DNA from: a virus
Direction: 5' to 3' (one strand)
IMG/VR virus record: IMGVR_UViG_3300005805_000044
DNA: 64,000 bases
In this document: piece after piece, positions 1,082-46,324 of the stretch
Numbering within the stretch: position 1 is the first letter of the stretch
How the letters are laid out: the number at the start of each line of letters is the position of its first letter
Notes under the pieces: model-generated
Told to the model about the DNA's origin: nothing
Databases searched by the model: none
Seen by the model: only the letters and a program-made list of their open reading frames with translations
Position numbers and translations under genes: made by a program

Positions 1082-4000
1082 TTATTCACTGAAACTTGCA
1101 CCAGTTGGTAGAATGTTGAAGTCAAGCAAGATGAATTCAGCAGTTCTAGTTGGTTGAATGTAGATTTGACCATATAGGATATTTCTATCAATTAGGTCAG
1201 GTGTATTGTTTTCAGCATCCATCTTAACTTGGTAAGCATAGATACCATTACGTTGTTGAACACTCTCCAAGTATGGATTGACGATACTCAAGAAACGGTT
1301 ACGAGTTGAAGCAACATTTTGTTCAAACACCAAGTAGTTGCTTGAACTTGCGATAAACTTCTTCAAGTTGATCAACAAACGACGAACATTGATACGATCC
1401 AAGGCACTTGGAGCAATTTGTAGAGTCTTTTGACCCCAAACTACGATACCTTGACCTGGGAATGCTGCGATTGGGTTCACACGATTCTCATATAGAGTGT
1501 CACGTTCAGCATGTGTCAATCTGTCTAGGACTTGAACAGCTTGTGGGATACCACCACGATTTAGACCGGCTGGAGCATACCATTCTGCAGCAGCATTGTC
1601 GTTAGCAGCATAAACTGCTGGCAACACTACTGAAGGAGGAACACTGATAATCTTATTCAAGTTTGTATCCAAAATCTTGACCCATGGATAGTAAGTTCCA
1701 ACATAGTTACTATCAATTGTAGCAACAGTATTAATTGCTGCATCAATCAATCCTACGCTTTGATTACTTGCTGGGAAGACCACGTTGTCCATAATGTAGA
1801 AACAATCACCACGAGCTTCACACATTGTGATTGTAATTTCTGTTACATAACTGTGTTGTTCACGGAAAATACCAGGCAACACAATCAAGTTGATATCAAA
1901 CTCATCAGCATTGCCTAGAGCAGCAATACATTGTTTGTAAGCAATACTACCTGGACTCTTGATAGTAGCACAATCCAAACCTTGAGTATTACCAGCAGTG
2001 ATGTCAGATCCAACATTAATTGGAATTGCTGGCCATTGTCCATCAAATCCACCTTGGAATCCTACAACAAATTTACGTAGTTTTACATAAATTGGTTCGT
2101 TGACTGGATCGTATACACTTGGAATACTACCACTCAAACTTGGAGCCAAGATCGAACCAGTGCTTTCTGATACGCCTTGAGCATAGTATGAACTATCTGT
2201 AGTTCCATACACTTTTGCTTCAAGATCGAAATCGATATTATCACCGTTTGAATCAGCACTACCAAAATATGGAAGTGGTTTGAAGTATTGTTTAGTATTA
2301 TTTTCAACACCAACTGCGAACGAAGATGTTGGATATAGATAAGCTAGTTCTTCACTTGCTTCTGGAACTTCACCAAACACCGTTCCAGATGGATACTTAC
2401 CTGGGGCAAGACCATAAATACTTGCCTTACTATAACGAACTGCTGGCAACAAGTTGCTCAAAGTTCCGTCAACAGGGGCGGAGTATGCTTGGAATCCATA
2501 TGGAATTACAACCTCAGGGTAAGCAACATCAGTCATTTCAATTCTGATATACTTACTCAAGTTGACATATGTTCCATATTCAACAATCTTACCGGCGAAT
2601 GTAATGTAAGCATAACGATCACCAATACGACGTGCAACGAAGTTAGGACTATCTGGATCAAGATTCAAGTTTTGGAAAATTTCCAAATACTTTGGACGTT
2701 TATCGGTGTCACTGTAAGCACGAACTGCGAGGGTGAATGAACCCCAAGCACTACCTGGAACAGTGCCAGCCAATTTAACGTTGTTAATTTCAATCTTATA
2801 CTTCTTGTTGCTCAATGTGCCATCACTTAAAGTGTGAACCTTGAACAATTGGAATTTAGTTGGAGTAGCAGCTTCATCAGCACTACCCTTGAATGGAGCA
2901 ATTTGTTGACTATAGATCCATGGTGTTTTTGCATTTGTAATAGCAAATTGTGAATCACCAGTATTTGGATCTAGTGAATATTGATCCAAAAACTTCATTG
3001 ATTCACCAACACTGAATGAAGCGGATGGAGCTGTAGTTACACGTAGTCTCCAACCACCACCCTCAGCATTTGGACGGGTCTTTTGAGCAACAACTTGTTT
3101 TATTGTATCTTCAAAGAGAACATAATTGTATGCTGCTTCAACTTTTTGACCTTGAACTTGTTTTGCTGGATTACCAACAGTTGGGTCAATACCGAACACA
3201 TCCTTGATGTAGTTATTATCATCTTCATTCAAACTGAAGTCATAATAACCATATGTTCCAGCAAATACATTACTATCAGCATCTGTGAAACTATAGTTCA
3301 AGATCAACTGATAGATGTTTTCGTTAGGATTGATATTACCTTCATATGGATATACTGAACTTGTCAATTGACTGACAGTTGAGGTATCAAATCCATATAC
3401 TTCATAATCACTACTGAATTGAGTAGAAGCATTTTGAGTATTTGCCAAAACAGCCATTACCACTGACTTACGACCAGTAGTAGATGGATTACATGGATCT
3501 GAACCACCTGCACCGTCAGCTTCGAAATTACCAGTGAATGCGCCATAAGATCCAGAGATTAGACCCAAGAATCTCAAAGCAGCACCACAAGTAGCAGCAC
3601 TACGAACTGTGGCAAAACTTGCGCTTTGAACATACAATGTGCTGGTAGCATCAAATGTGGCTTGATCGTAAGCAAGACTAATGTTACTCAAAGTTGAACT
3701 AATGTTCAAAATACTTGAAGTCAATTTGAAATCAGTCTCTGTGCTTTCTTGAATTGCTTGTGCAATTTGATCATTAGGAGTTGCATCAGAACCTTGAATA
3801 CTAGAAGTCAACTTAAAGTAACCAACTGCACCTGATGGTAGAGATTCACCGGTAAAATATCTGGCAAGATATCCAGATTCTACAGTTCCAAGAGTAACTT
3901 GTTTACCTGCATATAATTTACTACCACTCAATTGACCGGTTCCGTCATAATCTGATGGATAATCACTAGTCAAAGCAGCACTACCAAATCTTGCATTGAT

Positions 4001-5053
4001 ACTACCACTAAATTTTAGACGTGAGTTATCATATGATACAACAGAATCAAATCCGTTTTCATTAGATTCGTCTGGATCATATGCACTTACAGTGACGTTG
4101 GTTCCAGCTGGAATTGCTGTTGCAAGAACAACAAATGGCCATTTGACTTGTGCTCCACTCTTGATGATAGAAGCAGTCAAATAAGATGCGGAAGCATTTG
4201 ATGAGAATGTTTTTGAAGTTCCATCCCAAGTTCCGTGAATATTTTCATCAATTGCTCTTGTTGTCAAACCTGCACTGCTTGTGACATACAAACTACCTGA
4301 TGGAATCCATTGTGTTACATCAAACCAAGCAAGAGTATAATCTATACTACTATTAGTTGGTTGAACTGGATAACCACCAGCAACAGCTGATGCACTGAAT
4401 GCTGTGTAAGCATTTGTAGAAGTAATTGTTACAAGCTTTCTGGCACCCAATAGTGATGCCAAAGATGCTGACAAATCACTAATGTATGTTAAATTTTGAT
4501 TGCTACTCAAGAAACTTGTAATTTCAGCTGCGGTAGTTAATGTTCCAGTTACTTGCAAACCACCATCTGGTGTTGCTTGATATGTAGAAGAACCACTAAG
4601 TAGATAACCAGAAGCGGTATGTTCGTATTGAATATTAGCAGTATAATCTCCGCTGTCCAAATACATGAATGATGCGGTGGTTAATGCTCCAATATCATCA
4701 GTTCTGGTCCATTGACCAGGCTCAGCATATACAATCAATGGATTCTTTTGCCAATAACCAGTCAATCCACCTACGCGGACGACTGTCACAATACCTTGCT
4801 GTATAAGATATTCTTTGGCTGTATATGGTCCGTAGTAAACACCGTCGGCGAGACCGAAACGTTGTTCTAGTGTTGCTACGTCTGTGATAATATTTGGGAA
4901 AAACGCAGGTCCGTCAGCAAACGGAGCCACGATTGCACCACCTATGTTGGCTACGCCTTGGGCTAGCCCCGATAAGTCATTTTCTCTGGTGAATACACCA
5001 GGACTTACTATTTGTTGTGTTGGACTCCATCGTCCACCTTCTTGAATTGGCAT
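1082..5053 (-). CDS. Contractile tail sheath protein (gp18-like) with large internal insertion
   Basis: N-terminal SPGVFTRENDLS; C-terminal WYAPAGLNRG, LYENRVNPI, VWGQKTLQ, DRINVRRLL, PTRTAEFILLDF sheath motifs. Confidence 0.97.
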   Translation of the reverse strand: MPIQEGGRWSPTQQIVSPGVFTRENDLSGLAQGVANIGGAIVAPFADGPAFFPNIITDVATLEQRFGLADGVYYGPYTAKEYLIQQGIVTVVRVGGLTGYWQKNPLIVYAEPGQWTRTDDIGALTTASFMYLDSGDYTANIQYEHTASGYLLSGSSTYQATPDGGLQVTGTLTTAAEITSFLSSNQNLTYISDLSASLASLLGARKLVTITSTNAYTAFSASAVAGGYPVQPTNSSIDYTLAWFDVTQWIPSGSLYVTSSAGLTTRAIDENIHGTWDGTSKTFSSNASASYLTASIIKSGAQVKWPFVVLATAIPAGTNVTVSAYDPDESNENGFDSVVSYDNSRLKFSGSINARFGSAALTSDYPSDYDGTGQLSGSKLYAGKQVTLGTVESGYLARYFTGESLPSGAVGYFKLTSSIQGSDATPNDQIAQAIQESTETDFKLTSSILNISSTLSNISLAYDQATFDATSTLYVQSASFATVRSAATCGAALRFLGLISGSYGAFTGNFEADGAGGSDPCNPSTTGRKSVVMAVLANTQNASTQFSSDYEVYGFDTSTVSQLTSSVYPYEGNINPNENIYQLILNYSFTDADSNVFAGTYGYYDFSLNEDDNNYIKDVFGIDPTVGNPAKQVQGQKVEAAYNYVLFEDTIKQVVAQKTRPNAEGGGWRLRVTTAPSASFSVGESMKFLDQYSLDPNTGDSQFAITNAKTPWIYSQQIAPFKGSADEAATPTKFQLFKVHTLSDGTLSNKKYKIEINNVKLAGTVPGSAWGSFTLAVRAYSDTDKRPKYLEIFQNLNLDPDSPNFVARRIGDRYAYITFAGKIVEYGTYVNLSKYIRIEMTDVAYPEVVIPYGFQAYSAPVDGTLSNLLPAVRYSKASIYGLAPGKYPSGTVFGEVPEASEELAYLYPTSSFAVGVENNTKQYFKPLPYFGSADSNGDNIDFDLEAKVYGTTDSSYYAQGVSESTGSILAPSLSGSIPSVYDPVNEPIYVKLRKFVVGFQGGFDGQWPAIPINVGSDITAGNTQGLDCATIKSPGSIAYKQCIAALGNADEFDINLIVLPGIFREQHSYVTEITITMCEARGDCFYIMDNVVFPASNQSVGLIDAAINTVATIDSNYVGTYYPWVKILDTNLNKIISVPPSVVLPAVYAANDNAAAEWYAPAGLNRGGIPQAVQVLDRLTHAERDTLYENRVNPIAAFPGQGIVVWGQKTLQIAPSALDRINVRRLLINLKKFIASSSNYLVFEQNVASTRNRFLSIVNPYLESVQQRNGIYAYQVKMDAENNTPDLIDRNILYGQIYIQPTRTAEFILLDFNILPTGASFSE

Positions 5054-5168
5054 AATTTATGTTCCTTTCAGAGTGTCAACTTAACTTTTCCAAAAGTTAT
5101 GTTTACTTTATAAATATTACCAAAAAAGTGGAACACCTAACTATTTATAATATCTTAATTTTTTTTTA

Positions 5169-13016: not shown

Positions 13017-13084
13017 TGCCTATAAATATTGAAATAAACAAAAAATCTATCTTTAGACTCCAAATATTATTATCAATATATATA

Positions 13085-13930
13085 TTATTTCTTAAATTCA
13101 AGAATTCCATCTTTCCAATACGTGGGTATTTTGATCCATCCGTCACAATAAATATCTTTGGTATCTTCTCTCAAATCCGGTCCAAACCAAGTATCTGGAG
13201 CTATAACCACTTTATCATCGGTTCTTGATAACCAAGCTCCCCACCAACTAAAAGTGGAGTTAGATATGATAAAATGATCACACAAAGATAATAACCAAAG
13301 GCCCTCATAATCACGATAAACATTGTCTTCAATAAAAACACTATTTGGTAGTTTTATATTTTCTTTACACCATTTTATATCATCACTCATAATAATCAAG
13401 TGATTGTGTTTAGGCAATTGTTTATATGCTTCTTGTATATATTCCAAACTTACAACGGGGTGTCTTGTTGGTTGTGTTAAATAATCACCACGTCTTACAT
13501 TAATAGCAGCTACAATTGAACTTTCTAAAAATGGAAAGTCTTTTTTAGCTTTTTCAACAAATTCCTTGGTGGGTGAAAACAAATCTCTAATTGCTTCAGT
13601 AAATTTGCCAAAATACTTTTCAGACTGAAACCAACCCACATAAACAGTTGGTTTATCATTAGAAGGAGGTAAATTTGAGTAATAAAATGTCCCCCCAATA
13701 AACTGTGCATCATTTATACCCTCGGACTTTTTAATATCAAAGTCTAACTTTCTAAATAAATTTTTTTCAAATATGTTAGACGAACTATCTTGAGATGGTG
13801 CAACAAATTGTCTATTATATTCCAACGCTTTAGCATATCCATGTGCTAGTTGAAACATCATGTTGCCTGTTCTTCCTTGCAATCTACTACAAATGAAATT
13901 TTTAGAAAACGTGGTTGATTTTTTTCTCAT
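13085..13930 (-). CDS. Alpha-1,2-fucosyltransferase-like glycosyltransferase (GT11)
   Basis: GRTGNMMFQ, GWFQSEKYF, NVRRGDY, CDHFIISNSTFSWWGAWL motifs. Confidence 0.92.
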   Translation of the reverse strand: MRKKSTTFSKNFICSRLQGRTGNMMFQLAHGYAKALEYNRQFVAPSQDSSSNIFEKNLFRKLDFDIKKSEGINDAQFIGGTFYYSNLPPSNDKPTVYVGWFQSEKYFGKFTEAIRDLFSPTKEFVEKAKKDFPFLESSIVAAINVRRGDYLTQPTRHPVVSLEYIQEAYKQLPKHNHLIIMSDDIKWCKENIKLPNSVFIEDNVYRDYEGLWLLSLCDHFIISNSTFSWWGAWLSRTDDKVVIAPDTWFGPDLREDTKDIYCDGWIKIPTYWKDGILEFKK

Positions 13931-14601
13931 TGGTCATCCTTTTCATTCAACTTAATTAAATTTCCTTGTATATAATTTTTTTTAAAATGTGACAATGCTG
14001 GTGTATTGCCCCACGCGTCTAAATCACTAGAAATTTCTCTTTGATAACAACTTAAAGGATATATGATATATTTATTAATTTCATAACGTTGTCCCATCCA
14101 ACCATCAATTGCGGAATCTATAAATGGTCTAAAATTCAATAATTGTTTTATTGCACTTCTTGTAAATCCAATTCCGTGTGTAGTTAGAACTGTGTTAGCT
14201 TTTAACAAATTAGGTGACACTTGATGAATTTCTTTATCAAACACATATCCACCAAAATAGATAATATCCCAATCTGGAAAGTTAGCCAACTGATCCAAAC
14301 CTTTTTCAATATTATCAATTCCCTGTGATTCTTCATTTAAAAATACAAAGTCGTCTTCGAATATAACAATTTTTTCATATCCTTTTTCATAAGCATCTTG
14401 AAATATTTTATAAAATGAATAACTACAAAAAAAATGTTTATAGGTTATGTCAGGTCGTAATAGACAATCTTCAGCTGATCTACGTTCTAAAAAATTAAGC
14501 AAACCATATGGCCTAACTTCATCCTCAAACAAAGTTCGTCTGTCAGTTCGTCTGTCTAAATTTAAGTAATACCCTTTGTCAAAAAAATCTTGTATTTTCA
14601 T
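13927..14601 (-). CDS. GT25-family glycosyltransferase
   Basis: YLNLDRRTDRR, IFEDD, WDIIYFG, ID.W motifs; ATGA overlap with neighbours. Confidence 0.85.
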   Translation of the reverse strand: MKIQDFFDKGYYLNLDRRTDRRTLFEDEVRPYGLLNFLERRSAEDCLLRPDITYKHFFCSYSFYKIFQDAYEKGYEKIVIFEDDFVFLNEESQGIDNIEKGLDQLANFPDWDIIYFGGYVFDKEIHQVSPNLLKANTVLTTHGIGFTRSAIKQLLNFRPFIDSAIDGWMGQRYEINKYIIYPLSCYQREISSDLDAWGNTPALSHFKKNYIQGNLIKLNEKDDQ

Positions 14602-15311
14602 GTTAAAATATGTTTAAATTCCTCCACATTATATTTTTCGCCCAAAATGTCTTTAGCACGTTTTAAGAAATGTTTTCGTTTATCTGGAATTCGTATTTGA
14701 AAATTATGAAATGTGTCACTATCGTAATCTGTTCCGTTTCCATAAGCAAATGCTGGATATCCAAATCCGCCAGTATACTTCCATGTAAGATCTTCAGCAC
14801 AGTGTATTGGGTAGGACAACACTATTCTTCGTCCTTGTTTTTCTAATTCTCTAGTTAATGCTTCATAACCATCCGCTTCAGCCAAATTACCATCTGGATT
14901 TGGATACATTTGAGCATTAATTGATTGAAATGGAGAGTTAGACCAAACTGTATATGACATGTTAAATACGCCGCCATTTACAAATGGTGGTGTTCTATAT
15001 GGATTAATACCTGGAAAAACATTTGACGCTTGAGCATTTCCATACACTGTGTTTTGATCAGATATAAAACCCAATGTCTTTTTTACCCAATCTTTACTAG
15101 TCGGAAAACAATCTACATCAAATAATGATATAAAATCATAATCGGAATGTGTATCTAAATAATCTTGAATTGCGCCGGTGTGTGTATTTGTTTCAACGTC
15201 CCAACTAATTTGTTCAACATTCAAATCCAAATGATTGAATACTCGTTTTTGAAGAACAATAATTTCTTTGGGCAAATCTGTTTGATAAAATGAAAGTATT
15301 CTGTGTATCAT
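14598..15311 (-). CDS. GT-A fold glycosyltransferase-like protein
   Basis: FDVDCFP DxD motif; position within the coupled GT operon. Confidence 0.65.
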   Translation of the reverse strand: MIHRILSFYQTDLPKEIIVLQKRVFNHLDLNVEQISWDVETNTHTGAIQDYLDTHSDYDFISLFDVDCFPTSKDWVKKTLGFISDQNTVYGNAQASNVFPGINPYRTPPFVNGGVFNMSYTVWSNSPFQSINAQMYPNPDGNLAEADGYEALTRELEKQGRRIVLSYPIHCAEDLTWKYTGGFGYPAFAYGNGTDYDSDTFHNFQIRIPDKRKHFLKRAKDILGEKYNVEEFKHILT

Positions 15312-16486
15312 AACAACGTATTGATAAAATCAACCCACATAGCACCAACCTTAGCAGAATTAAAATTGTCAAGAATATATTGTTTTCCTTTTGCTCTTAA
15401 TTCTTCTTTTACTTGAGGATTGTTTTCTAGATATTTTATTTTCTCTACAATCTTGGGAATATTATATTTAAAAATTCCATCTTCGTCTTTAGATAAAGCT
15501 TCTGATTGCATTTTAACTGGATCGACATTTTCTGGAAAATCAATCCAAACACAATGACCATCAAAAATTTCAGGTAATGCTCCTAATGGATAAGTTATTG
15601 GTATAACACCAAGTGCTATTGCTTCAGCAACAACACATGAGAAAGTGTCCTTATGAACATCTTTGTAAGGAGTATACAATGGATACACAAAATATTCACT
15701 TTCTGCTAGATGAGTAAATAATGTCTTTTTATCTACACCATTGTGTCTAGTAAAAAATGGATCTTTATGATCGTGTGTTGCTAACAAATAATCAAAAGCA
15801 TGAAATTCAACATCTGGAAAATTTAAATGTCTAACTGCTTCTATAGCCACATTTCCACCTCTTGCCCAAGCTGCATGAAATATAAATTTGTGATTCTTTC
15901 GAGTCAAATTCATTTCACACACTTCATTGACAATATCATCCATTATAGGATTTGGTATCAATGCTTGTTTAAGATCTGGTATTTGAGACTTAATATTATC
16001 AACTGTAGATTGATTCATTCCCTTTTCCCAGTTAGATATATTAACTATTCCCAGTTGTAAATTATTCTCTTTGGTATAATTAATAATTTCACTGAGACCA
16101 TACAACCACTGCATATGGTTCCAATAAATCAATGCTTTGGTAACCTTGATAGGTAACTCTTTATATTTGGCAAACCATAAACTATTAATCAAGATATCAA
16201 ATTCTTTATTATCAATACCATCAAAATTCAAGTTGGTATAAATAACACCTCTAACTTTCATGCCTGGAACATAAACTCGCCCAGCTTTTTTATATGCCTG
16301 TTCCAACTGTGGTTCCAAAGCCTCTGTCACAAATACAACTTCGTGTCCTTGCGAAGCCAAATATTCAGCCACAACTATAGAACTACTATCTGTTCCACTA
16401 CCTCCACCGCCACCATAACGAAGTGTGTCACCATTTAGATAGTTACTACGTCTGCTATTACCTATTACTGTAAATACAATTCTCAT
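15308..16486 (-). CDS. GT-B fold glycosyltransferase (GT4-like)
   Basis: GGGGSGTD N-terminal loop; DTFSCVVAEAIALGVIPI..GALPE donor-binding motif. Confidence 0.85.
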   Translation of the reverse strand: MRIVFTVIGNSRRSNYLNGDTLRYGGGGGSGTDSSSIVVAEYLASQGHEVVFVTEALEPQLEQAYKKAGRVYVPGMKVRGVIYTNLNFDGIDNKEFDILINSLWFAKYKELPIKVTKALIYWNHMQWLYGLSEIINYTKENNLQLGIVNISNWEKGMNQSTVDNIKSQIPDLKQALIPNPIMDDIVNEVCEMNLTRKNHKFIFHAAWARGGNVAIEAVRHLNFPDVEFHAFDYLLATHDHKDPFFTRHNGVDKKTLFTHLAESEYFVYPLYTPYKDVHKDTFSCVVAEAIALGVIPITYPLGALPEIFDGHCVWIDFPENVDPVKMQSEALSKDEDGIFKYNIPKIVEKIKYLENNPQVKEELRAKGKQYILDNFNSAKVGAMWVDFINTLL

Positions 16487-17733
16487 ATATTCTTTTCATA
16501 TCGTGGTGTCCAACCAGATACCTTGTTATAACCATACATAACTAATTTACTTGGTTTATTATCGCTGCTATATCTACATACATGACTATCGTAAGTATAG
16601 TTAAATACAGATGGGTTGGTTTCTGGTTTAAAATCTACACGATATAAATTGTTTGAGAATTTATCTACTACACCTAATGTGATAAATTCATAACCCTCTT
16701 TGAGATTATCTTTAAAGAACTGAGTATCCCAAGTAACTCTAGTTTCATAGTTCTCGGTTTTAAATTCTTCATCCCATACACCTGGATTTGGTGGTTCATT
16801 TACTTTGAGTGTATAACCTTGTATTCTACATTTTTTAAAATCAAATCCAAAACTGACTTCATAATCATGTAACGTTCGTTCACTACCAAGTCCATAAATA
16901 CCAAATGGAATTTTATGATCTTCTTGACCAAACAACTGTCTTACCAAATTTCTTGATAAAATGTCTCGTTCGCCACTAGTAACTTTGATCTTTTCATTTT
17001 TGTGACCATGATCATCCCAGTGTTTTACACGATAATTTCTGGTGTATTCATGCCACATAACCATTCTATATGGAGAGTAAAAATCATAACCATGTGTATA
17101 TGCTCTTACAGACATAGAAGTCTCTTCTGTATAACCACCAAAATAAACCCGAGGATCATATTGAACTTCTTCACAGAACTTACCTTGTGTAAAAATAAAA
17201 TGTCCAGATAATGTCCTAGCTCTAATCACTTTGGTTCTAGTCTTATAATCTTGTATAAACCATGGCATGCTCATCAACAACTTATCACTTGAAAATTCAT
17301 ATTGACTCATTAAACATGGAATTGGATTCCAAGTAGAAGGATCATCTTGTGGATTAAACGGCGTGCAATATGTTGTAATAATTGGTTTTTTACAAAACTG
17401 CCGGGCCTGATTATAATCTTCAATGCAAATAGCATCCCAATCTTGAACAAATCTATGATGTGAGTCAATTTGTAAAGTATAATCTTCACCTTTCCATAAC
17501 TTTTGAGTCAAATTTCTAGCCCATCCAAGACCTTCGCTTTCGTGATATTTTACGTCAACAACACTGAATCTAGGATCATTAGTATATTCTTCTAATGACT
17601 CAGTATCATCACGCTGCCAACATATACCAAACGTAAGATTTTCTGGATATTTGGCTTTTGCAATTAAATCTCGGATTGTAGGAACCAACTCTGGGTCTCT
17701 ATAACTAGCAATTTGAACGAATATTTTAGACAT
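16483..17733 (-). CDS. Polypeptide N-acetylglucosaminyltransferase-like (GT60, Skp1 GlcNAcT-like)
   Basis: IFVQIASYRDPEL, GLGWAR, YTLQIDSHHRF..WD, SGHFIF, EE..MSVRAYTHGYD motifs. Confidence 0.85.
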   Translation of the reverse strand: MSKIFVQIASYRDPELVPTIRDLIAKAKYPENLTFGICWQRDDTESLEEYTNDPRFSVVDVKYHESEGLGWARNLTQKLWKGEDYTLQIDSHHRFVQDWDAICIEDYNQARQFCKKPIITTYCTPFNPQDDPSTWNPIPCLMSQYEFSSDKLLMSMPWFIQDYKTRTKVIRARTLSGHFIFTQGKFCEEVQYDPRVYFGGYTEETSMSVRAYTHGYDFYSPYRMVMWHEYTRNYRVKHWDDHGHKNEKIKVTSGERDILSRNLVRQLFGQEDHKIPFGIYGLGSERTLHDYEVSFGFDFKKCRIQGYTLKVNEPPNPGVWDEEFKTENYETRVTWDTQFFKDNLKEGYEFITLGVVDKFSNNLYRVDFKPETNPSVFNYTYDSHVCRYSSDNKPSKLVMYGYNKVSGWTPRYEKNI

Positions 17734-17790
17734 AACTATTGTTTATATAGATATCGTAACACTTAAAACTTTTATTATAAATTGATGACA

Positions 17791-19677
17791 TTAAACTACA
17801 GTATCCCACCTTACAGTTCCAGAATATGTTTTCATACCATCACCCCATCCACGGCCGTTGACCTCAGCATTAGTATTTCTGCTAGTAATGTATATGAATA
17901 GTATTTTATATGGGGTAGCAGTTATTATTGAATAGTTGAAGAAATTGACATTACCATTTCCCGTATATGTTACGACTGGAGTAGACCATGTGTTTGGATA
18001 TATATAGGCAATAAATCCGTCTCCACCAAATCCGCTTGTATAAGGGCCGAATCCAGCACCGCCACCATTACCAGCACCCCAGTTTTGACCAGCAGATGTA
18101 GGCATTCCACCGTCTCTTCCTCTTCCATCAGGTCCATAGAAATCAGAGGCACCACGACCTTGGCCGGGTGCTGGTGCGGTGGTTGATCCAACAACACCGG
18201 TCTTTTTTATAGAATTGCCGCCGCCGCTTCCTGCGATAGCATTGGCTATAAGCGTGTCAACATAGATATCAAACCAAGTTGGAATTTCTCCAGCAGTCAT
18301 AACAGCTGTTCCAAGACCGCCCTGTGCTGTTGGACCGGCTAAGAGTTGTCCACTAACGCCACTGGAATTATATCCACCACCAGATCCACCAACTCTATAA
18401 TCAACAGCTTCAACGCCAACACCGCCAGATCCGCCAGATCCATCACCGCTACCTGCTGCTATAAGAGTTCCATCGGGTGCGACACCGCCGCCACCGCCAC
18501 CACCACCATATACACCATCACCAGCAGCAAGAGCTACGCCGTTGATATAACTTGCGCCACCACCGCCACCACCGGCATAATAGGTATCAGCAAACATAGT
18601 GGTTTGACCATTTCTATTGGCCATTACTGAACCAGAAATTGAGTCGCCGCCACTACCAACAACAAAGTTATATGTTACACCAGCAACAGGTATAAAGGTA
18701 TTTGTTAATACATAAGCACCCGATCCACCGCCACCCATTGCTGGTTCACTAGCAACGACGCTGTTTATTTTGTCACCACCCGCACCACCGCCACCTACCA
18801 TAAATAGTTGAATGCCAGGATCAGGTGTAGGTGTTGGAGTTGGGGTCGCAGTAGGAGATGGTGTAGGTGTATTTGTTATTGTTGGGGTAGGAGTAGGTGT
18901 AGCTGTAGGAGCAGGCGTGTTTGTTGGAGTTGGCGTAGGTGTGGGTTCTACTGGAGCTGGCGTTGGAGTTGGAGTTGGAGTATCTGTGGGTGCAGGTGTT
19001 GGTGTAGGTGTAGGTGTGTCTGTTGGAGCTGGAGTGTTTGTAGGTGTAGGTGTTGGAGTAGGTTCTACTGGGCCAGGCGTTGGAGTTGGTGTTGGAGTAT
19101 CTGTTGGACCAGGCGTTGGAGTTGGTGTTGGAGTATCTGTTGGACCAGGCGTTGGAGTTGGCGTAGGAGTATCTGTTGGACCCGGAGTAGGTGTAGGCGT
19201 AGGAGTATCTGTTGGACCAGGTGTTGGGGTTGGCGTTGGAGTATCTGTTGGACCAGGTGTTGGGGTTGGAGTAGGTGTGGAAGTTGATGTAGGTGTTGGT
19301 GTTGGTGTGGAAGTTGATGTAGGTGTTGGTGTTGGTGTAGGAGAAGGTGTAGGAGTTGGCAAATCTTCTGAATTACATGCACAGACGGTTACATTTTTTA
19401 TTACGCCGACAAAAGTAAAACTATTCTTACTAGGATTATACTGATATAATACAAAACTTAAAGTTTGACCATTACCTACACTTTGTAATGACACTTTAAA
19501 TTTATATTTTTTAAACAACAAATCATAAGCAGGCGTGGTCGATAAAATATTATTATTTAAGTCTGATATCAATTTTAGCGCTGTGGTTGAAAGAAACTTG
19601 TCACTCTCAGATATACTATATAGCCAATGTATTAAATTAGATTTGTATAAAATATAAGAATATAAGTCTGTTATCAT
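17791..19677 (-). CDS. Pro/Thr-repeat (mucin-like) protein with glycine-rich C-terminal domain; probable tail-fibre/virion decoration protein
   Basis: ~180-aa PT tract followed by [14 protein letters not shown] glycine-rich domain typical of tail-fibre tips. Confidence 0.75.
18820..19360 (-). repeat. Coding tandem repeats, ([12 protein letters not shown])n and (TP)n
   Basis: 36-nt units such as GGAGTATCTGTTGGACCAGGCGTTGGAGTTGGTGTT repeated about 19075-19260; synonymous variation between units. Confidence 0.9.
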
Positions 19678-19698
19678 AATATTTGTTTATTCACTATT

Positions 19699-21462
19699 TT
19701 AACTTAATACTACCAACCATGGATCAGCTTGAGTTCCCGATCCACTTACTACACCAGATACAAATGGACTGACCTCCGCATATCTACTTAACGCGGTAGT
19801 TAAAGATGTATAATCAAATGGTGATGAAAATTGCATTAAATTACCACAACACAAATCTACACCCAGTCTATTATATGTGCCGGTAAATGATATAGCGATA
19901 TCACTACCAGATTCATAGTCTGGGAACGATGATGGAGTTCCACCACCCCAAGATATGGTGCATAAATATTGACGGTTTGTAAAACCTGTAGGACCACCAT
20001 GTGGATCATTCACGGCACATTCAAATGTAGTTCCGAGACCTTCTTCATTAAATGTATTGCCATTTGCATCGGCAGGAATTTCATTAACAACTACATCTGG
20101 GCTTGCGATTCCACTTCCGCCACAGTAATCACAAGTGCCAGCTTCTTGTTGAGCTTGAGTGCAACAGTCTGGACAACTCTCACAACCCGGATCTGTTATT
20201 GGATCACAACAAGGTGGTTCAAACGAACAAGAACTTGGTGGAACAAAGTAAATCTTAGCATAAAATAAATTTTCTGGAGTTGTTGGTGTAGGGGTAATTG
20301 TAGGTGTTGGAGTTGGGGTATCTGTAGCTGTAGGAGTAGGTGTTGGAGTGTCCGTTGGAGTCGGGCTTGGAGTTGGTGTTGGAGTGTCCGTTGGAGTCGG
20401 GCTTGGAGTTGGTGTTGGCGTTGGGGTTGCCGTTGCAGTTGGCGTAGGCGTTGGAGTAGGCTCACCCGGTGCAGTTGTAGGTGTAGGTGTTGGAGTGTCG
20501 GTTGGCGTAGGAGTTGGTGTTACCGTTGGGGTAGGAGTAGGCGTAGGTGTGATTGTAGGAGTAGGAGTTGGGGTTACTGTAGGCGTTGGCGTTGGAGTAG
20601 GCGTTGGACCAATTGGTGTGTTGGTTGGAGTTGGGCTTGGTGTAGGTGTAGGAGTTACCGTAGGAGTAGGCGTCGGTGTTAATGTTGGAGTAGGTGTTGG
20701 AGTTGGAGTAGATGTAGGTGTTGGAGTTGGAGTAGATGTAGGTGTAGGTTCGATATCACAACATTTTCCATCTTCATTAGGATTTATAAAATATGAACCA
20801 AGACCACAAATATCAATTGGAATAGTCAAATCTGTGGTTGAAGCTTCAAAAGAATATTTGTTTATAAAATATGTTCCTGACAATATTAAATTATAATTTC
20901 CATCATCAATTAGATCCGCAACAATGTCTCCACTTTGATTGGTAAACACGACACTATTTGGTCTAATTTGATCACCTGCTTGTGGTATGGTAAAATTTAA
21001 TACAGATATATCATTAGTCAAACTACTGGTCATCATCGATGCATCATAACCATTTATACCAAACATGTTATATGCATTGTTGTAGTTATTATAATACATG
21101 TTTTTAATTGTATTATAAACTTGACGTTGATATGTTCCATCTAGATTTAATGGATTTGTAACTGGATTATAATCACTACTTCCAGAAGGATAAAACACTA
21201 CACTTGATGTAACAAAAACACCAAGTTGAAAATTTATAGGAGAATCAAATTCACTAGTAGAAAGATATCCATCTACAGTTTGAACTGGCAAACAACTACC
21301 TGACAAATTATCACTACATTGGTTAGTTGGAAGTAATAATGGATATTCTTCTTCACCAATATTTGCTATAATCAAATCTGGAAAAATACTATTTGCTACT
21401 TGAGGTTTAGCAATAGTAAATGGAGTTACGATTATATCTTGATTTCTAAAAAATTTAATCAT
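19699..21462 (-). CDS. Virion structural protein with long Pro/Thr tract and Cys-rich C-terminal domain
   Basis: N-terminal domain resembles neighbouring baseplate proteins ([15 protein letters not shown]); ~155-aa PT tract; C-terminal CC/CxxC cluster. Confidence 0.75.
20275..20750 (-). repeat. Coding (TP)n low-complexity repeat
   Basis: GGTGTT/GGAGTA-type hexamers; duplicated TGTTGGAGTGTCCGTTGGAGTCGGGCTTGGAGTTGG unit. Confidence 0.9.
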
Positions 21463-21483
21463 CCCTATATAAATAGGATTATT

Positions 21484-22593
21484 TTAGAAATCGATACGGA
21501 CTTTTATTAATAGTTCACTATCAAAACTCTTTTGAACCGGTCTACTAATTTTACCAATTGCCAACAGTTCATTGTTACCATTATATAGACCAACACTAGT
21601 AATATAAGTTCTTGGATTATTGATCAAGTCTTGATAAATAATAGTGCCTTTTGTTTTACCATCGGTTCCATTTGATACAAAAGTAGGATTGTTACTATAA
21701 TTGAACTCTTTGTTCTTTACACGGACGAAGTAATTTGTTGATGGAACAAATTCACTCTTTCTAGCAGCCATTGGAACTCTTCTTACGTTTTTGATTGCGT
21801 TAAAAAAGTCACGTTGCCACAGACGATATGCGTTTTGAACTGAATTAGCTGCTACATAAGTGGATGAATTGGATAATCTTTGATCAATATATGTTCCGTG
21901 AGTAAAGCCAACTTGATTATTTGTCTTATCAGCATTAAATATTACAATACCATTAGATGGATAAAACAATCCAATACCAGCATATACTGGACTATTATTT
22001 TTTAGATAAGGCGTAGGAACACCGTTAATTACTGATCCAGATATCAAATTATAAACGTTTTGTTGTTTGTTGATAACTTGTGAATCATCAATATAAGAAT
22101 ATGATCCAGAAGATCCAGATAAGTTGATTTGAATTTGACCCGGATCCAATTGATCTTTGAATTTATCTGGAGAAAAATTCATTACAAAGATTTGTTCTCC
22201 ATCAATTGGCGTAGATACGCTTCCAGAAGCAAAAGTAAACAATGTATCACCCGGTTGTAATAGTGTATTCTTATATTGAGAATAAATTACTTTGGATTCA
22301 TTTGTTAAAACTGGGGTTGTTGAACCAGTGTAGTCATATTTTGAACTACCACTATTTTCATAATCACCATAAGCAATAGCAAAATAAGTTTCTCCTCCCA
22401 ATAAAACATTTAAATAATATTGTCCATTTTTAACATCAAATGGTGAAGATCCAGTTAAACTATTGGCTTGTGTAGATGATGTTGTAAAATTTGACTGCGT
22501 TACATATAAACTGCCGGTGCCGAATAATCCAGAAGATACTTGGTTTATTCTTCCTGATACAATATCATCGTTTGTAAATTGACTAAATATCAT
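21484..22593 (-). CDS. Conserved baseplate/tail structural protein
   Basis: YFVRVKNKEFNYSNNPTF and YITSVGLYN..ELLAIGKISRP..K motifs; in the baseplate operon. Confidence 0.7.
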   Translation of the reverse strand: MIFSQFTNDDIVSGRINQVSSGLFGTGSLYVTQSNFTTSSTQANSLTGSSPFDVKNGQYYLNVLLGGETYFAIAYGDYENSGSSKYDYTGSTTPVLTNESKVIYSQYKNTLLQPGDTLFTFASGSVSTPIDGEQIFVMNFSPDKFKDQLDPGQIQINLSGSSGSYSYIDDSQVINKQQNVYNLISGSVINGVPTPYLKNNSPVYAGIGLFYPSNGIVIFNADKTNNQVGFTHGTYIDQRLSNSSTYVAANSVQNAYRLWQRDFFNAIKNVRRVPMAARKSEFVPSTNYFVRVKNKEFNYSNNPTFVSNGTDGKTKGTIIYQDLINNPRTYITSVGLYNGNNELLAIGKISRPVQKSFDSELLIKVRIDF

Positions 22594-30103: not shown

Positions 30104-32101
30104 TTATACCACTAATCCCTTAATATCTTTTTCTGGAAATTTAATTTCAAATATTGATGGATCCTTCGACGGATATACAATATTATTTTGTGTAGCAATA
30201 TCAATATTATATGCTATTTGAGAATAATCAGGTCCGTCTATATCATATGTCAGATTTTTAACTTTTACCTCAATCACTGACTGGACACCTTCATTCTTCA
30301 TTATTTCAAAGGTAAGTTGACTCAAATTGATTGGTTGATTAAAACTCCAGTTTTCAATATTAAAGAATGCTTGAACTGAAGCAATACAATTATTTAGAAC
30401 ATCACGTTTATTAAATCCAGCAAATACACTGATTTTAAAATCTACACCTATATTGACAATATATCCATCAATAATATTAAATTTATCAGTCAAAATTTTA
30501 TACTGACTCAAGTAATTTTTCAGATTCAATAACGTTGCTTCATTACATTGTGTAAGTTTATTATCTTTATTATACCCAAGGATATATAGATTATTAGTAA
30601 ATGGGCTATTTGATTCCAAGAATTTTCTACGATCCAAAGGATTCAATGGACTCAAGTTTAAAAATTCATTCTCAGCAGCAGAACCAGTAATAACTCCGCT
30701 AATCAAACCTGTATATGAAACTTGACGAGTCGCATTAGATTGAACAAATGCTTTTGCTATACTTCCAAATTGTGAGTTCATAGAATAAACTCTCAACAAT
30801 ATGTCTTCTTCAGTTACAATTCGATTTTGTGAAGAAAAATTAGCAATAGCATTTTGTCTAATTTCTTCATCTGTATCAGGGCCATTTCCACCAGTAGCAG
30901 AATTTGGGTTTGTAACACGAAGCGAATTTTTAATACTATTAAACAGAGTCACTTGACTATCTGTCAATCCAGAAGTATCATTTAAATATCCGACAGCCTG
31001 AATTGTGTTTATCTCGCCTGAATTTACATTTGATGTAATTCCGCCACCAACAATATATGTAATCGTAAGAGTAGTATTTGATGGAGATACACCATAAGAG
31101 TTACTCTTGAGAACATTTGTTCCGTCTAAACTTATATTTAGATTGCCTAAATTTGAAAGTGATACGCCCACATTTGAAGGATTTGGAATGATTACAGTGT
31201 TGTCAAAATTTTCAGTATTAGCACCAAATACTAAATAAGTTGAATTATTCTCATCAATTGTTGTTATAAATCTTTTTTCAGTTCTTAAATATTTTAACAA
31301 CTTTGGAGTTTCGCCTCTGTATTTTGATAATGTTTGGTTTGTCAAAGGAACATTATCCACTGCAATTGGTATTGTTTCTTGTGCTAAATATTGAACTTCG
31401 TAATAATTGTTGTTGTTACTATCAACTATACTTACCACTTTGATAATATCAGTTGCGTCCAATTTAATTTGCAAAAATGGCTCAGGTGCACCAACACTCA
31501 CTTGATTAATTACAAGATTGCCAGAAAATGCTTTTGCTATTTTTTTAATTAAATAAAATTGAGGTGCGCCAGTTTCATCACGACTGTATACAGAAATCTC
31601 TCTTGGTGAAAAAATAGTATCTTGACTGAAATCGACACTTTCTTCTACTAAGAAAGTAACACCCGAAACACTTGATAATACTGTAAATGGTTGTAATATT
31701 AAACAATATGTTTCATCTGGAACATATTCACCATCGATTTCACCGGTTCTTTTAGCTGGTAATAGTTGAAATAGTTCTACGTCAGTTGACGAAGCAGTAG
31801 TTACTTTGGGTTTATATCCAAGATATCTAGCTTGATTTATAAGATTGCGTCTATCTGTTGCAAATTGGACAAAGCTTTCTTTGAATTGCTGGTCGGTGTA
31901 ATATGATAATACGTCGCCTACATACGCAGCTTGTTCGATAAAGATTTGACCCGGAGAACTTTCACTAAAATCTCTATAACTTTGTGGGTAATATTGTTTA
32001 GTAAAATCAATCAACTGTTGCTTCAAAGACGTAAAATCTCTATTAACGTAATTTACGTCTTTAGTATCTGTTCTAAAAGTTTTATTAACTATTTGTGCCA
32101 T
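30104..32101 (-). CDS. Baseplate wedge protein (gp6 / baseplate J-like)
   Basis: RDFTSLKQQLI..YRDFSESSPG..AYVGDVLSYY; ATGG..DEEIR..QNRIVT. Confidence 0.9.
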   Translation of the reverse strand: MAQIVNKTFRTDTKDVNYVNRDFTSLKQQLIDFTKQYYPQSYRDFSESSPGQIFIEQAAYVGDVLSYYTDQQFKESFVQFATDRRNLINQARYLGYKPKVTTASSTDVELFQLLPAKRTGEIDGEYVPDETYCLILQPFTVLSSVSGVTFLVEESVDFSQDTIFSPREISVYSRDETGAPQFYLIKKIAKAFSGNLVINQVSVGAPEPFLQIKLDATDIIKVVSIVDSNNNNYYEVQYLAQETIPIAVDNVPLTNQTLSKYRGETPKLLKYLRTEKRFITTIDENNSTYLVFGANTENFDNTVIIPNPSNVGVSLSNLGNLNISLDGTNVLKSNSYGVSPSNTTLTITYIVGGGITSNVNSGEINTIQAVGYLNDTSGLTDSQVTLFNSIKNSLRVTNPNSATGGNGPDTDEEIRQNAIANFSSQNRIVTEEDILLRVYSMNSQFGSIAKAFVQSNATRQVSYTGLISGVITGSAAENEFLNLSPLNPLDRRKFLESNSPFTNNLYILGYNKDNKLTQCNEATLLNLKNYLSQYKILTDKFNIIDGYIVNIGVDFKISVFAGFNKRDVLNNCIASVQAFFNIENWSFNQPINLSQLTFEIMKNEGVQSVIEVKVKNLTYDIDGPDYSQIAYNIDIATQNNIVYPSKDPSIFEIKFPEKDIKGLVV

Positions 32102-32502
32102 TAGATTGTATTGGTAGAGATTTCAACGTCCGTGTTCGATGTAATTTTATTATATGTGAATGTTACACTTATAAATATCTTATTTGGATCACTATTCTCT
32201 GGTTGAGTTTTAGACAATCCAACTTTTACATCATTTACAATTACGCCATTTAAAAATTTATTGATGTCTCTTTGAACTACATCAACTATAATGCCTGGAT
32301 TTACCTCCAATTCATTTTGTTGAAATAATAGTTCATATAGACTAGATCCAAACTCGTTATTAAATCTACGTTCACCTGGTTTGGTCATCAATAAATTTCT
32401 GATGTTTGCTGATACTTGTCCAATAGTGGTAGTATTGGTATCAAAATATCCATCTTGACCAAGTTTAATAGGTAGTTTTAATCCTAGAGCTTGTTTTGCC
32501 AT
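32101..32502 (-). CDS. Baseplate wedge subunit gp25-like
   Basis: NIRNLLMTKPGERRFNNEFGSSLYELLF. Confidence 0.92.
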   Translation of the reverse strand: MAKQALGLKLPIKLGQDGYFDTNTTTIGQVSANIRNLLMTKPGERRFNNEFGSSLYELLFQQNELEVNPGIIVDVVQRDINKFLNGVIVNDVKVGLSKTQPENSDPNKIFISVTFTYNKITSNTDVEISTNTI

Positions 32503-39833: not shown

Positions 39834-40310
39834 TTAATTAATTTTAACCTTTTTTGTTGTAGGAGGTGTTGGTTTGATCTTGTTAACCGTCACTGTAAGC
39901 AAACCATTTTCAAACCTTGCTTCAGGATCATCCTTATCAAATAAATCACTCAAAACAAAAGCACGTTTAAAACTACTGTGTTTTAGTTCTCTACGAATAT
40001 AGGTTTTATTGTTGTTTTCCTTGACATCCTTAGTCTTTTGTCCACTAATAATCAAGAGATTTTCCTCAATTTCAACTGAAACTTCCTCCTTGGCAAGGCC
40101 TGGAATTTCGGCAACAATCTCAATGTGATCATCATAATCCACAACATCTACACGGGGATAACTTTGTTTTTCAAAAAACCCAACACCAAAATCTTTGGTC
40201 AATTCTGGGAATGTATTTGTGAAAACCTCATCGAAAATTTTATCGAATGGCGTAATAAAATCGTCACGATTGATGTGACGCAATGCTGGCACTTTATATC
40301 TAACTGACAT
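39834..40310 (-). CDS. hsp20: Small heat-shock protein (Hsp20/alpha-crystallin)
   Basis: YPRVDV, AEIPG, RRE..SFKRAF, ARFENGLLTV; SD AAAGGA upstream. Confidence 0.95.
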   Translation of the reverse strand: MSVRYKVPALRHINRDDFITPFDKIFDEVFTNTFPELTKDFGVGFFEKQSYPRVDVVDYDDHIEIVAEIPGLAKEEVSVEIEENLLIISGQKTKDVKENNNKTYIRRELKHSSFKRAFVLSDLFDKDDPEARFENGLLTVTVNKIKPTPPTTKKVKIN

Positions 40311-46302: not shown

Positions 46303-46324
46303 ATGTTATAAATATAATTATCAA

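Follow-up and report, generated by a model that had tools for sequence, protein, structure and literature searches.

A 64,000-nucleotide stretch of DNA from the virus record IMGVR_UViG_3300005805_000044 in IMG/VR (hereafter the window, by which we mean this whole stretch) carries two genes for fibre-like proteins with long proline/threonine (PT) tracts, followed directly by five glycosyltransferase genes. We consider it probable that these five genes constitute a phage cassette for the O-glycosylation of proteins in the cytoplasm, acting on the Pro/Thr stalks of the phage's own fibres, i.e. of PT587 and PT628 and probably also of a more distant protein, PT645 (coordinates in Table 1). The phage probably sugar-coats its own fibres, as stalks and enzymes are jointly acquired or jointly missing among its relatives, and the proposed link between tract and enzyme is supported by this comparison and not by adjacency alone.

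The five enzyme genes start after a 57-nt gap behind PT628 on the minus strand and overlap by ATGA at four junctions (13927-30, 14598-601, 15308-11 and 16483-86), which confirms the coordinates, the gene order and the overlaps given in an earlier sequence-only reading of this DNA. All five products are labelled glycosyltransferases (GT) by PHROGs. That reading had assigned them, in order, to GT60-like, GT4-like, GT-A, GT25 and GT11 enzymes, and these names stand to different degrees. The GT60-like and GT11 assignments lie above their Pfam cut-offs: PF11397 matches the first protein in two stretches, the best of which covers profile positions 100-351 of 352, and the protein also matches phrog_24687 (E 6e-96), while PF01531 spans residues 16-268 of the GT11-family protein, which has a VRRGDY motif and matches phrog_2644 (E 3e-57). 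The GT25 assignment holds but is weak, since only residues 56-108 (53 residues) align to PF01755. The GT4-like protein stays below the Pfam cut-off; it matches phrog_2170 over its whole length (E 4e-6), and its nearest language-model clusters (score 0.99) carry PF00534 Glycos_transf_1 or PF13439 Glyco_transf_4. For the remaining protein a GT-A assignment is plausible because of its invariant DxD motif (FDVDCFP); Pfam and PDB sequence searches with it returned no match, and its atlas neighbours are viral hypothetical proteins, with GT2 on 13% of the members of one cluster. An NCBIfam scan of ten proteins gave no useful names, and no membrane segments were found in the five enzymes or the PT proteins.

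The proposed acceptors have a modular architecture. PT587 consists of a conserved N-terminal anchor (residues 1-232, window 20767-21462), a Pro/Thr stalk of 169 residues with 73 T and 61 P (residues 233-401, window 20260-20766) and a Cys-rich tip (residues 402-587), and the stalk of PT628 comprises 192 residues with 74 T and 73 P (residues 100-291, window 18805-19380). Both tracts had thus been recognised correctly in the earlier reading, with lengths put at 155-180 residues. A third PT-linker protein with a LamG domain, announced in the same place, was recovered as PT645 with its Laminin_G_3 domain and two PT linkers; it is likely a further substrate of the cassette, 35 kb away.

Evidence for a connection between tracts and enzymes comes from a conserved backbone on which both come and go. 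We used fib369, the conserved backbone fibre/baseplate protein encoded upstream of PT587, as synteny anchor, and an alignment of its homologues retrieved 80 IMG/VR loci in which the order p214, fib369, "MIKFF" anchor protein, FG-GAP fibre, p161, RuvC, primase and SbcCD is kept. We compared 37 non-identical backbones that extend for 6 kb or more downstream. Ten of them have a GT60 gene, and in all ten the same fibre gene bears a PT tract; the other 27 have neither, and there are at least three changes of state on the fib369 tree. The anchor domain of PT587 is kept in all backbone relatives and the stalk only where the GT60 gene is present; without GT60, the anchor protein measures 209-376 residues (1332 in one lineage) and is free of a P/T/S tract. 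The difference between the window and L057, the closest relative without a cassette, is a single contiguous block reaching from the PT587 stalk to GT11. A second cassette type lies behind the same fibre gene in two loci of close relatives (L055:12948-21108 and L064:12810-19641), which encode an 870-899-residue protein with two tandem PF11397 domains, accompanied in L055 by a carbamoyltransferase and in L064 by an 801-residue FkbM-methyltransferase/HtrL/GT2 fusion (its counterpart in L055 has 930 residues). The GT60 genes of the two types are 37-46% identical, and in L055 and L064 the fibre gene has a tract of SVTP or TPSLTA repeats. One and the same fibre gene is thus paired, in its tract-bearing versions, with two unrelated cassettes.

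The same association was seen in whole genomes and when sampling from the PT side, so that the co-occurrence check proposed with the sequence-only reading gave a positive result at all three levels. A (PT)5 match occurs in none of 15 GT60-negative and in 8 of 11 GT60-positive records (Fisher p 1e-4); of the three other GT60-positive records, two have SVTP or TPSLTA tracts and one has Ser/Thr-rich fibre genes directly before GT60. The GT60-free G005, a close relative (303 kb, 89% complete, p214 95% identical), has 394 open reading frames (ORFs), none of them with a P/T/S tract; PT628, PT645 and all glycosyltransferases are missing, and only the PT587 anchor is kept. The complete, GT60-positive G002 (335 kb), in which the cassette is unlinked, has eight tract ORFs. 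Among 45 viral records selected solely by an exact (PT)7 tract, nine encode PF11397 (six of the nine records of at least 90 kb), compared to 4 of 50,697 isolated phages, and in six of these nine the GT60 gene and a (PT)6 tract are no more than 3 kb apart.

The lead enzyme is proposed to be a soluble, initiating polypeptide N-acetylhexosamine (HexNAc) transferase. Its DxH motif (D90-S-H92, within QxDSHHRF) is invariant in 13 homologues of 42-85% identity, and the replacement of the GT-A DxD by DxH is confined to GT27 and GT60 (PMC7185993), families which have polypeptide Ser/Thr O-glycosylation in common (PMC7185993, PMC8724618). The top 29 PDB fold matches of its AlphaFold (AF2) model (predicted local distance difference test, pLDDT, 70) are polypeptide N-acetylgalactosamine (GalNAc) transferases of GT27 (Z 17.1-20.4 over 249-276 aligned residues), and generic GT-A enzymes rank lower (Z up to 16.5, the value for SpsA), a moderate but consistent margin. 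Fold and motif fit a polypeptide O-glycosyltransferase. The C-terminal domain of about 90 residues (327-415) is a confident, beta-rich part of the model that fell outside every PDB alignment in a search made with the whole model only; GT27 enzymes carry a C-terminal ricin-type lectin domain and GT60 enzymes do not (PMC8724618). PDB sequence searches with the protein and its 13-sequence profile found no match. All characterised GT60 enzymes modify polypeptides, either mucin-type Thr/Ser in T. cruzi and Dictyostelium or the hydroxyproline of Skp1 (PMC8724618, PMC6939170), the latter in a cytoplasmic pathway started by GT60 and continued by a galactosyltransferase and then an alpha-1,2-fucosyltransferase (PMC6939170). 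Of the relatives scanned with the prolyl hydroxylase profile PF13640, G002 has a match and G001, G003 and G004 have none; we do not favour hydroxyproline as the acceptor, since one of those without a match, G003, is complete and GT60-positive.

Retrieval through GT60 itself yielded 34 loci that extend the picture beyond the backbone. The tract lies in the ORF ending just before GT60 in L011, L015, L017, L020, L027, L028, L032, L035 and L036, of which L011, L027, L032 and L035 represent unrelated backbones, and nine of 11 GT60 sequence clusters have a tract within 3 kb at some locus (a lenient rule by which any member suffices). In type-1 cassettes (loci L003-L031) the GT4-like gene directly follows GT60. 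This pair is constant, while the later enzymes vary from 0 to 3 even among close relatives, GT25 being found only in some; many cassettes also carry a UDP-galactopyranose mutase or a methyltransferase. The mutase (PF03275, E 7e-73) ends the type-1 cassette at L017:15161-16246 and likewise in L011, L015, L020, L028 and L029, and galactofuranose (Galf) is therefore implied in the glycans of those relatives. Two more small PT-tract proteins are encoded after the mutase in L015, L017, L020 and L028. In the Xanthomonas phages XacN1 and Xoo-sp13, GT60 forms a pair with a carbamoyltransferase near a giant protein, whose annotated gene spans about 9.7-9.9 kb, and an ORF at the start of the giant protein of Xoo-sp13 has a 44-residue PT tract. 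Stenotrophomonas phage CM1 is, like XacN1, a GT60-positive phage in culture. Bacterial relatives of PF11397 occur in 180 species genomes from many phyla. In about a dozen of 80 bacterial loci examined, GT60 begins directly where a long P/T/S-tract protein ends (the raw count of 34 of 80 is unreliable due to spurious ORFs in high-GC DNA). These include six Sphingomonas loci (L353:2286-5990, L363, L368, L371, L373 and L374), where the tract protein, of about 1,200 residues and with an Rv2525c-like glycoside-hydrolase-like domain, ends within a few bases of the PF11397 start; in a Saprospiraceae locus (L338:3927-5948) the tract protein ends within about 50 nt of it.

Several observations weigh against a self-glycosylation of the fibres. 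PT linkers do not need the enzyme, as 36 of the 45 PT-selected records are without PF11397. The placement of the PT proteins in the virion draws on gene position and architecture, and an AlphaFold model of the PT587 anchor (alignment of 12 sequences) reached a pLDDT of 35 and gave no structural link to a T4 baseplate protein. The cassette is separated by at least 70 kb from the PT genes in one clade (L021, L024, L030 and L031; genome G002), and the PF11397 homologue of XacN1 and Xoo-sp13 sits beside DNA polymerase and RNase H. A characterised prokaryotic or viral member of PF11397 was not found in the literature. On the window's backbone, stalks, tips and glycosyltransferases could moreover be inherited as one block, so that part of the co-variation may reflect linkage. 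Finally, GT4, GT25 and GT11 are families typical of lipopolysaccharide (LPS), lipooligosaccharide (LOS) and O-antigen synthesis.

This last point could also mean that the cassette remodels a surface glycan of the host (LPS/LOS, capsule or S-layer), for example to block superinfection or to alter recognition, with the PT linkers left unmodified. Such remodelling is the usual reading of cyanophage glycosyltransferase clusters (PMC12801897), and lipid-linked intermediates on the inner membrane face are likewise substrates of soluble glycosyltransferases. We regard it as unlikely, as it leaves unexplained both the joint gain and loss of PT tract and GT60, on backbones as in whole genomes, and the presence of PF11397 in 20% of the PT-selected viral records. 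Furthermore, the known family members of the lead enzyme all act on polypeptides, its fold is closest to GT27, and the cassette lies inside the baseplate/fibre module and not in a moron-like island. Alternatively, stalks, tips and glycosyltransferases might travel as one exchangeable accessory-fibre block without sharing a function, the enzymes acting on another phage or host protein or on a small molecule. The single block that separates the window from L057 and the only about three state changes required by the backbone tree agree with this, but two cassette types with GT60 genes of 37-46% identity pair with PT versions of one gene, the pairing recurs on unrelated backbones and in independently sampled records, G002 has both features though unlinked, and PT645, 35 kb off, is also missing from the cassette-free G005; we judge an explanation by linkage quite unlikely. 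A glycosylation of phage DNA is very improbable: although phage glycosyltransferases can build multi-enzyme glycans on 5-hydroxymethylcytosine (bioRxiv 10.1101/2023.12.21.572611) and DNA polymerase and RNase H are encoded close to the homologues of XacN1 and Xoo-sp13, it would leave the PT co-variation unexplained, no DNA glucosyltransferase is among the top 50 fold matches of the lead enzyme, no base-modification gene adjoins the cassette in any locus examined, and the ThyA-like hydroxymethylase PF00303 is absent from the complete, GT60-positive G002 as well as from G001 and G004 (TET/JBP were not searched).

For the favoured glycosylation of the phage's own fibre stalks we propose the following course. 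It builds on the observed gene content, family membership, fold, DxH motif, solubility and co-variation of tracts with GT60, whereas acceptor, sugar, sequence of enzyme action and presence of the PT proteins in the virion are inferred. HexNAc transfer onto Thr/Ser of mucin domains is carried out by GT60 and GT27 enzymes. Late in infection, the soluble GT60-like enzyme would place a HexNAc, most likely alpha-linked N-acetylglucosamine (GlcNAc) from host UDP-GlcNAc, on the Thr (or Ser) of the (T/S)P repeats, and the always-paired GT4-like enzyme would add a second sugar to complete a conserved core. Variable enzymes, here the DxD protein, GT25 and GT11 and in relatives Galf-related, methyl- and carbamoyltransferases, would then add an outer glycan that differs between strains. 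Decorated in the manner of a bottle brush, the stalk would be stiff and extended and would resist proteases, holding the tips off the baseplate, and its glycans would give the particle a variable glycan surface. The sequence-only reading had gone further, taking the gene order as the order of action in a complete pathway with a fucosylated, possibly H-antigen-like (Fuc-Gal-GlcNAc) product. Neither the order nor the completeness found support, and such a product is not deducible, because only GT60 and GT4 are conserved and the other enzymes number from 0 to 3; genes for GDP-fucose or UDP-galactose supply were not seen within the 64 kb of the window. Its suggestion that the glycan could serve as a shield or as bait is speculation.

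A broader reading, to which we give about even chances as a whole, is that PF11397 stands for a so far undescribed prokaryotic and phage form of mucin-type O-glycosylation, with a soluble initiator working on (T/S)P stalks in the bacterial cytoplasm, exchangeable GT60-led cassettes in jumbo phages and the same pairing in many phyla. Within it, a conserved GT60 and GT4 core with variable outer enzymes might produce a strain-variable fibre coat, by analogy to O-antigen variation.

The DNA of the window belongs to a T4-type jumbo phage of freshwater metagenomes, and near-identical contigs are present in IMG/VR. Its long ORFs are all on the minus strand and its RNA genes comprise 18 transfer RNAs and a transfer-messenger RNA; besides the tail sheath and baseplate wedge genes (Table 1) it also encodes SbcCD, primase, RuvC, an S74-chaperone fibre and PhoH. 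The cassette has the orientation of the fibre genes and is closed downstream by the FG-GAP protein, which in cassette-free relatives directly follows the anchor protein. The "virion operon" of the sequence-only reading is correct insofar as the genes lie in this baseplate/fibre module; none of the PT proteins has a direct virion annotation. PT628 matches phrog_15511 and phrog_2295, both of unknown function, and a homology search with its C-terminal part, in which low-complexity words swamped the candidate list, found two near-identical unnamed proteins only. Among isolated phages, a tblastn search with the PT587 anchor domain gave zero matches, and fib369 matched only "hypothetical proteins" of Microcystis, Rhodothermus and Flavobacterium phages. 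Otherwise unrelated proteins, namely fib369, the FG-GAP protein and those at L101:11142-12098 and L029:384-773, have a C-terminal motif in common (about 35 residues, …VGLY.G..L.A..K…P.K……I.V(K/R).D(F/T)); it may represent a common attachment or assembly domain. Opposite the PT tracts, two Gly/Val-rich ORFs of 159-210 residues (18808-19444 and 20348-20896, plus strand) are not genes, as they are by-products of the (CCN ACN)n repeat, which also raises the GC content locally to 0.45 and reverses the GC skew.

Terminator-like sites are absent from the gaps of the cassette, and scans for sigma-70 promoters and terminators remained at chance level. The T4-type late promoter TATAAATA was rejected as cassette promoter, since it is not found upstream of the cassette on the coding strand. 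This motif occurs 21 times in the window (9.7 expected), with 16 copies on the plus strand, which read TATTTATA on the coding strand. It is often located ahead of a gene start, at a distance of a few to about 60 nt. With one copy ahead of PT587, and the next intergenic copy only ahead of the FG-GAP gene, PT587 to GT11 may form one transcription unit.

As to the host, the gene directly downstream of PT645 encodes a pilin-like protein. Pilin-like proteins with DUF1559 typically occur in Planctomycetota and Verrucomicrobiota, and this gene is the sole hint toward the Verrucomicrobiota host that had been suggested and is otherwise unsupported, or toward Planctomycetota. The backbone relatives point elsewhere, namely to phages of Bacteroidota, Rhodothermus and cyanobacteria, and the paper on "moraphages" to Bacteroidota (PMC12619734). 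All of these freshwater jumbo phages are reported to have heat-shock genes (PMC12619734), and in view of its HSP20 gene our phage may therefore belong to or near the "moraphage" lineage.

Table 1. Genes and sequence motifs in the 64-kb window, with the matches or characteristics on which their names are based.
Feature	Position	Strand	Match or characteristics
GT60-like enzyme	16483-17733	-	PF11397 GlcNAc, E 2e-59, 202.2 bits (cut-off 21)
GT4-like GT-B glycosyltransferase	15308-16486	-	Pfam GT1/GT4, 20.5 bits, below cut-off (26.4)
Putative DxD glycosyltransferase	14598-15311	-	Invariant FDVDCFP; weak phrog_2456
GT25-family glycosyltransferase	13927-14601	-	PF01755, 28.1 bits (cut-off 24)
GT11-family enzyme (alpha-1,2-fucosyltransferase family)	13085-13930	-	PF01531, 101 bits (cut-off 23.9)
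PT587, anchor-stalk-tip fibre protein	19699-21462	-	
PT628	17791-19677	-	Short N-terminal part, Pro/Thr stalk, Gly-rich C-terminal domain
PT645	57015-58952	-	Laminin_G_3 (LamG), E 8e-17; two PT linkers
fib369, conserved backbone fibre/baseplate protein	21484-22593	-	Upstream of PT587
FG-GAP repeat fibre-like protein, 885 residues	10359-13016	-	PF14312, E 1.6e-17
Tail sheath	1082-5053		
gp6-like baseplate wedge protein	30104-32101		
gp25-like baseplate wedge protein	32101-32502		
HSP20/alpha-crystallin gene	39834-40310	-	E 1e-19
Pilin-like protein, 223 residues	56149-56820	-	PF07963 N-terminal methylation motif; DUF1559 weak, below cut-off
TATAAATA, examples of plus-strand copies	13021-13028, 21468-21475, 5109-5116, 46307-46314, 56122-56129, 59917-59924	+	

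If the fibres are indeed glycosylated by the cassette, self-glycosylation would be extended to the receptor-binding appendages of phages infecting environmental bacteria, namely T4-type jumbo phages, and the prokaryotic and viral branch of GT60 would obtain a first function, with a eukaryote-like mucin-type initiation working in the bacterial cytoplasm. It would also explain why glycosyltransferases belong to the core, so far unexplained genes of freshwater jumbo phages (PMC12619734). From an applied point of view, the cassettes would offer compact soluble enzymes for making mucin-like glycoproteins in bacteria, and their gain and loss among near-identical phages would amount to a natural experiment on the effects of a glycan coat on adsorption, stability and escape from recognition. 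A literature search found no paper linking GT60 to phage fibres or describing glycosylated PT fibres.

Among known systems, the protist GT60 enzymes of T. cruzi and Dictyostelium, including Gnt1, are similar in their PF11397 domain, their DxH motif and a GT-A domain closest to GT27. The Gnt1/Skp1 pathway in particular is likewise soluble and cytoplasmic and involves further transferases including one of a fucosyltransferase family. Unlike these, the enzyme described here is encoded by a phage and would work in the bacterial cytoplasm on proposed acceptors that are (T/S)P fibre stalks of 170-190 residues, it carries about 90 additional residues at the C-terminus that form a beta-rich domain, and its partners are GT4, GT25 and GT11 instead of the GT2, GT74 and GT77 of the protist pathway; in contrast to the Skp1 pathway, a prolyl hydroxylase (PF13640) was not found in the complete relative G003. 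Animal GT27 enzymes give the best fold match (Z up to 20.4 over 262-276 residues) and share the DxH motif and dense Thr/Pro-rich acceptor tracts, whereas the phage enzyme is only 10-16% identical to them in sequence, is without a signal anchor and has no ricin lectin domain that the fold search with the whole model could recognise. Virus-encoded, host-independent machineries for self-glycosylation produce the capsid glycans of chloroviruses and the fibrils of mimiviruses, and similarly decorate surface fibres or capsid, although these giant viruses infect eukaryotes and use other enzyme families and acceptors. To our knowledge, virion glycosylation has been shown in few phages only, at the capsid and tail-tube ends of mycobacteriophages. 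As summarised in PMC12619734, glycosyltransferases of these phages glycosylate their own virion proteins, at the C-termini of capsid and tail-tube subunits (Freeman et al., 2023). Common to both is the placement of phage glycosyltransferases with structural genes, with a function shown there and proposed here; the difference lies in the internal PT stalks of baseplate fibres, the T4-type jumbo phage background and the GT60-led cassette. The cassette would thus combine two known kinds of systems, phage virion glycosylation and mucin-type initiation by GT60/GT27 enzymes, a combination which appears well supported by comparative genomics.

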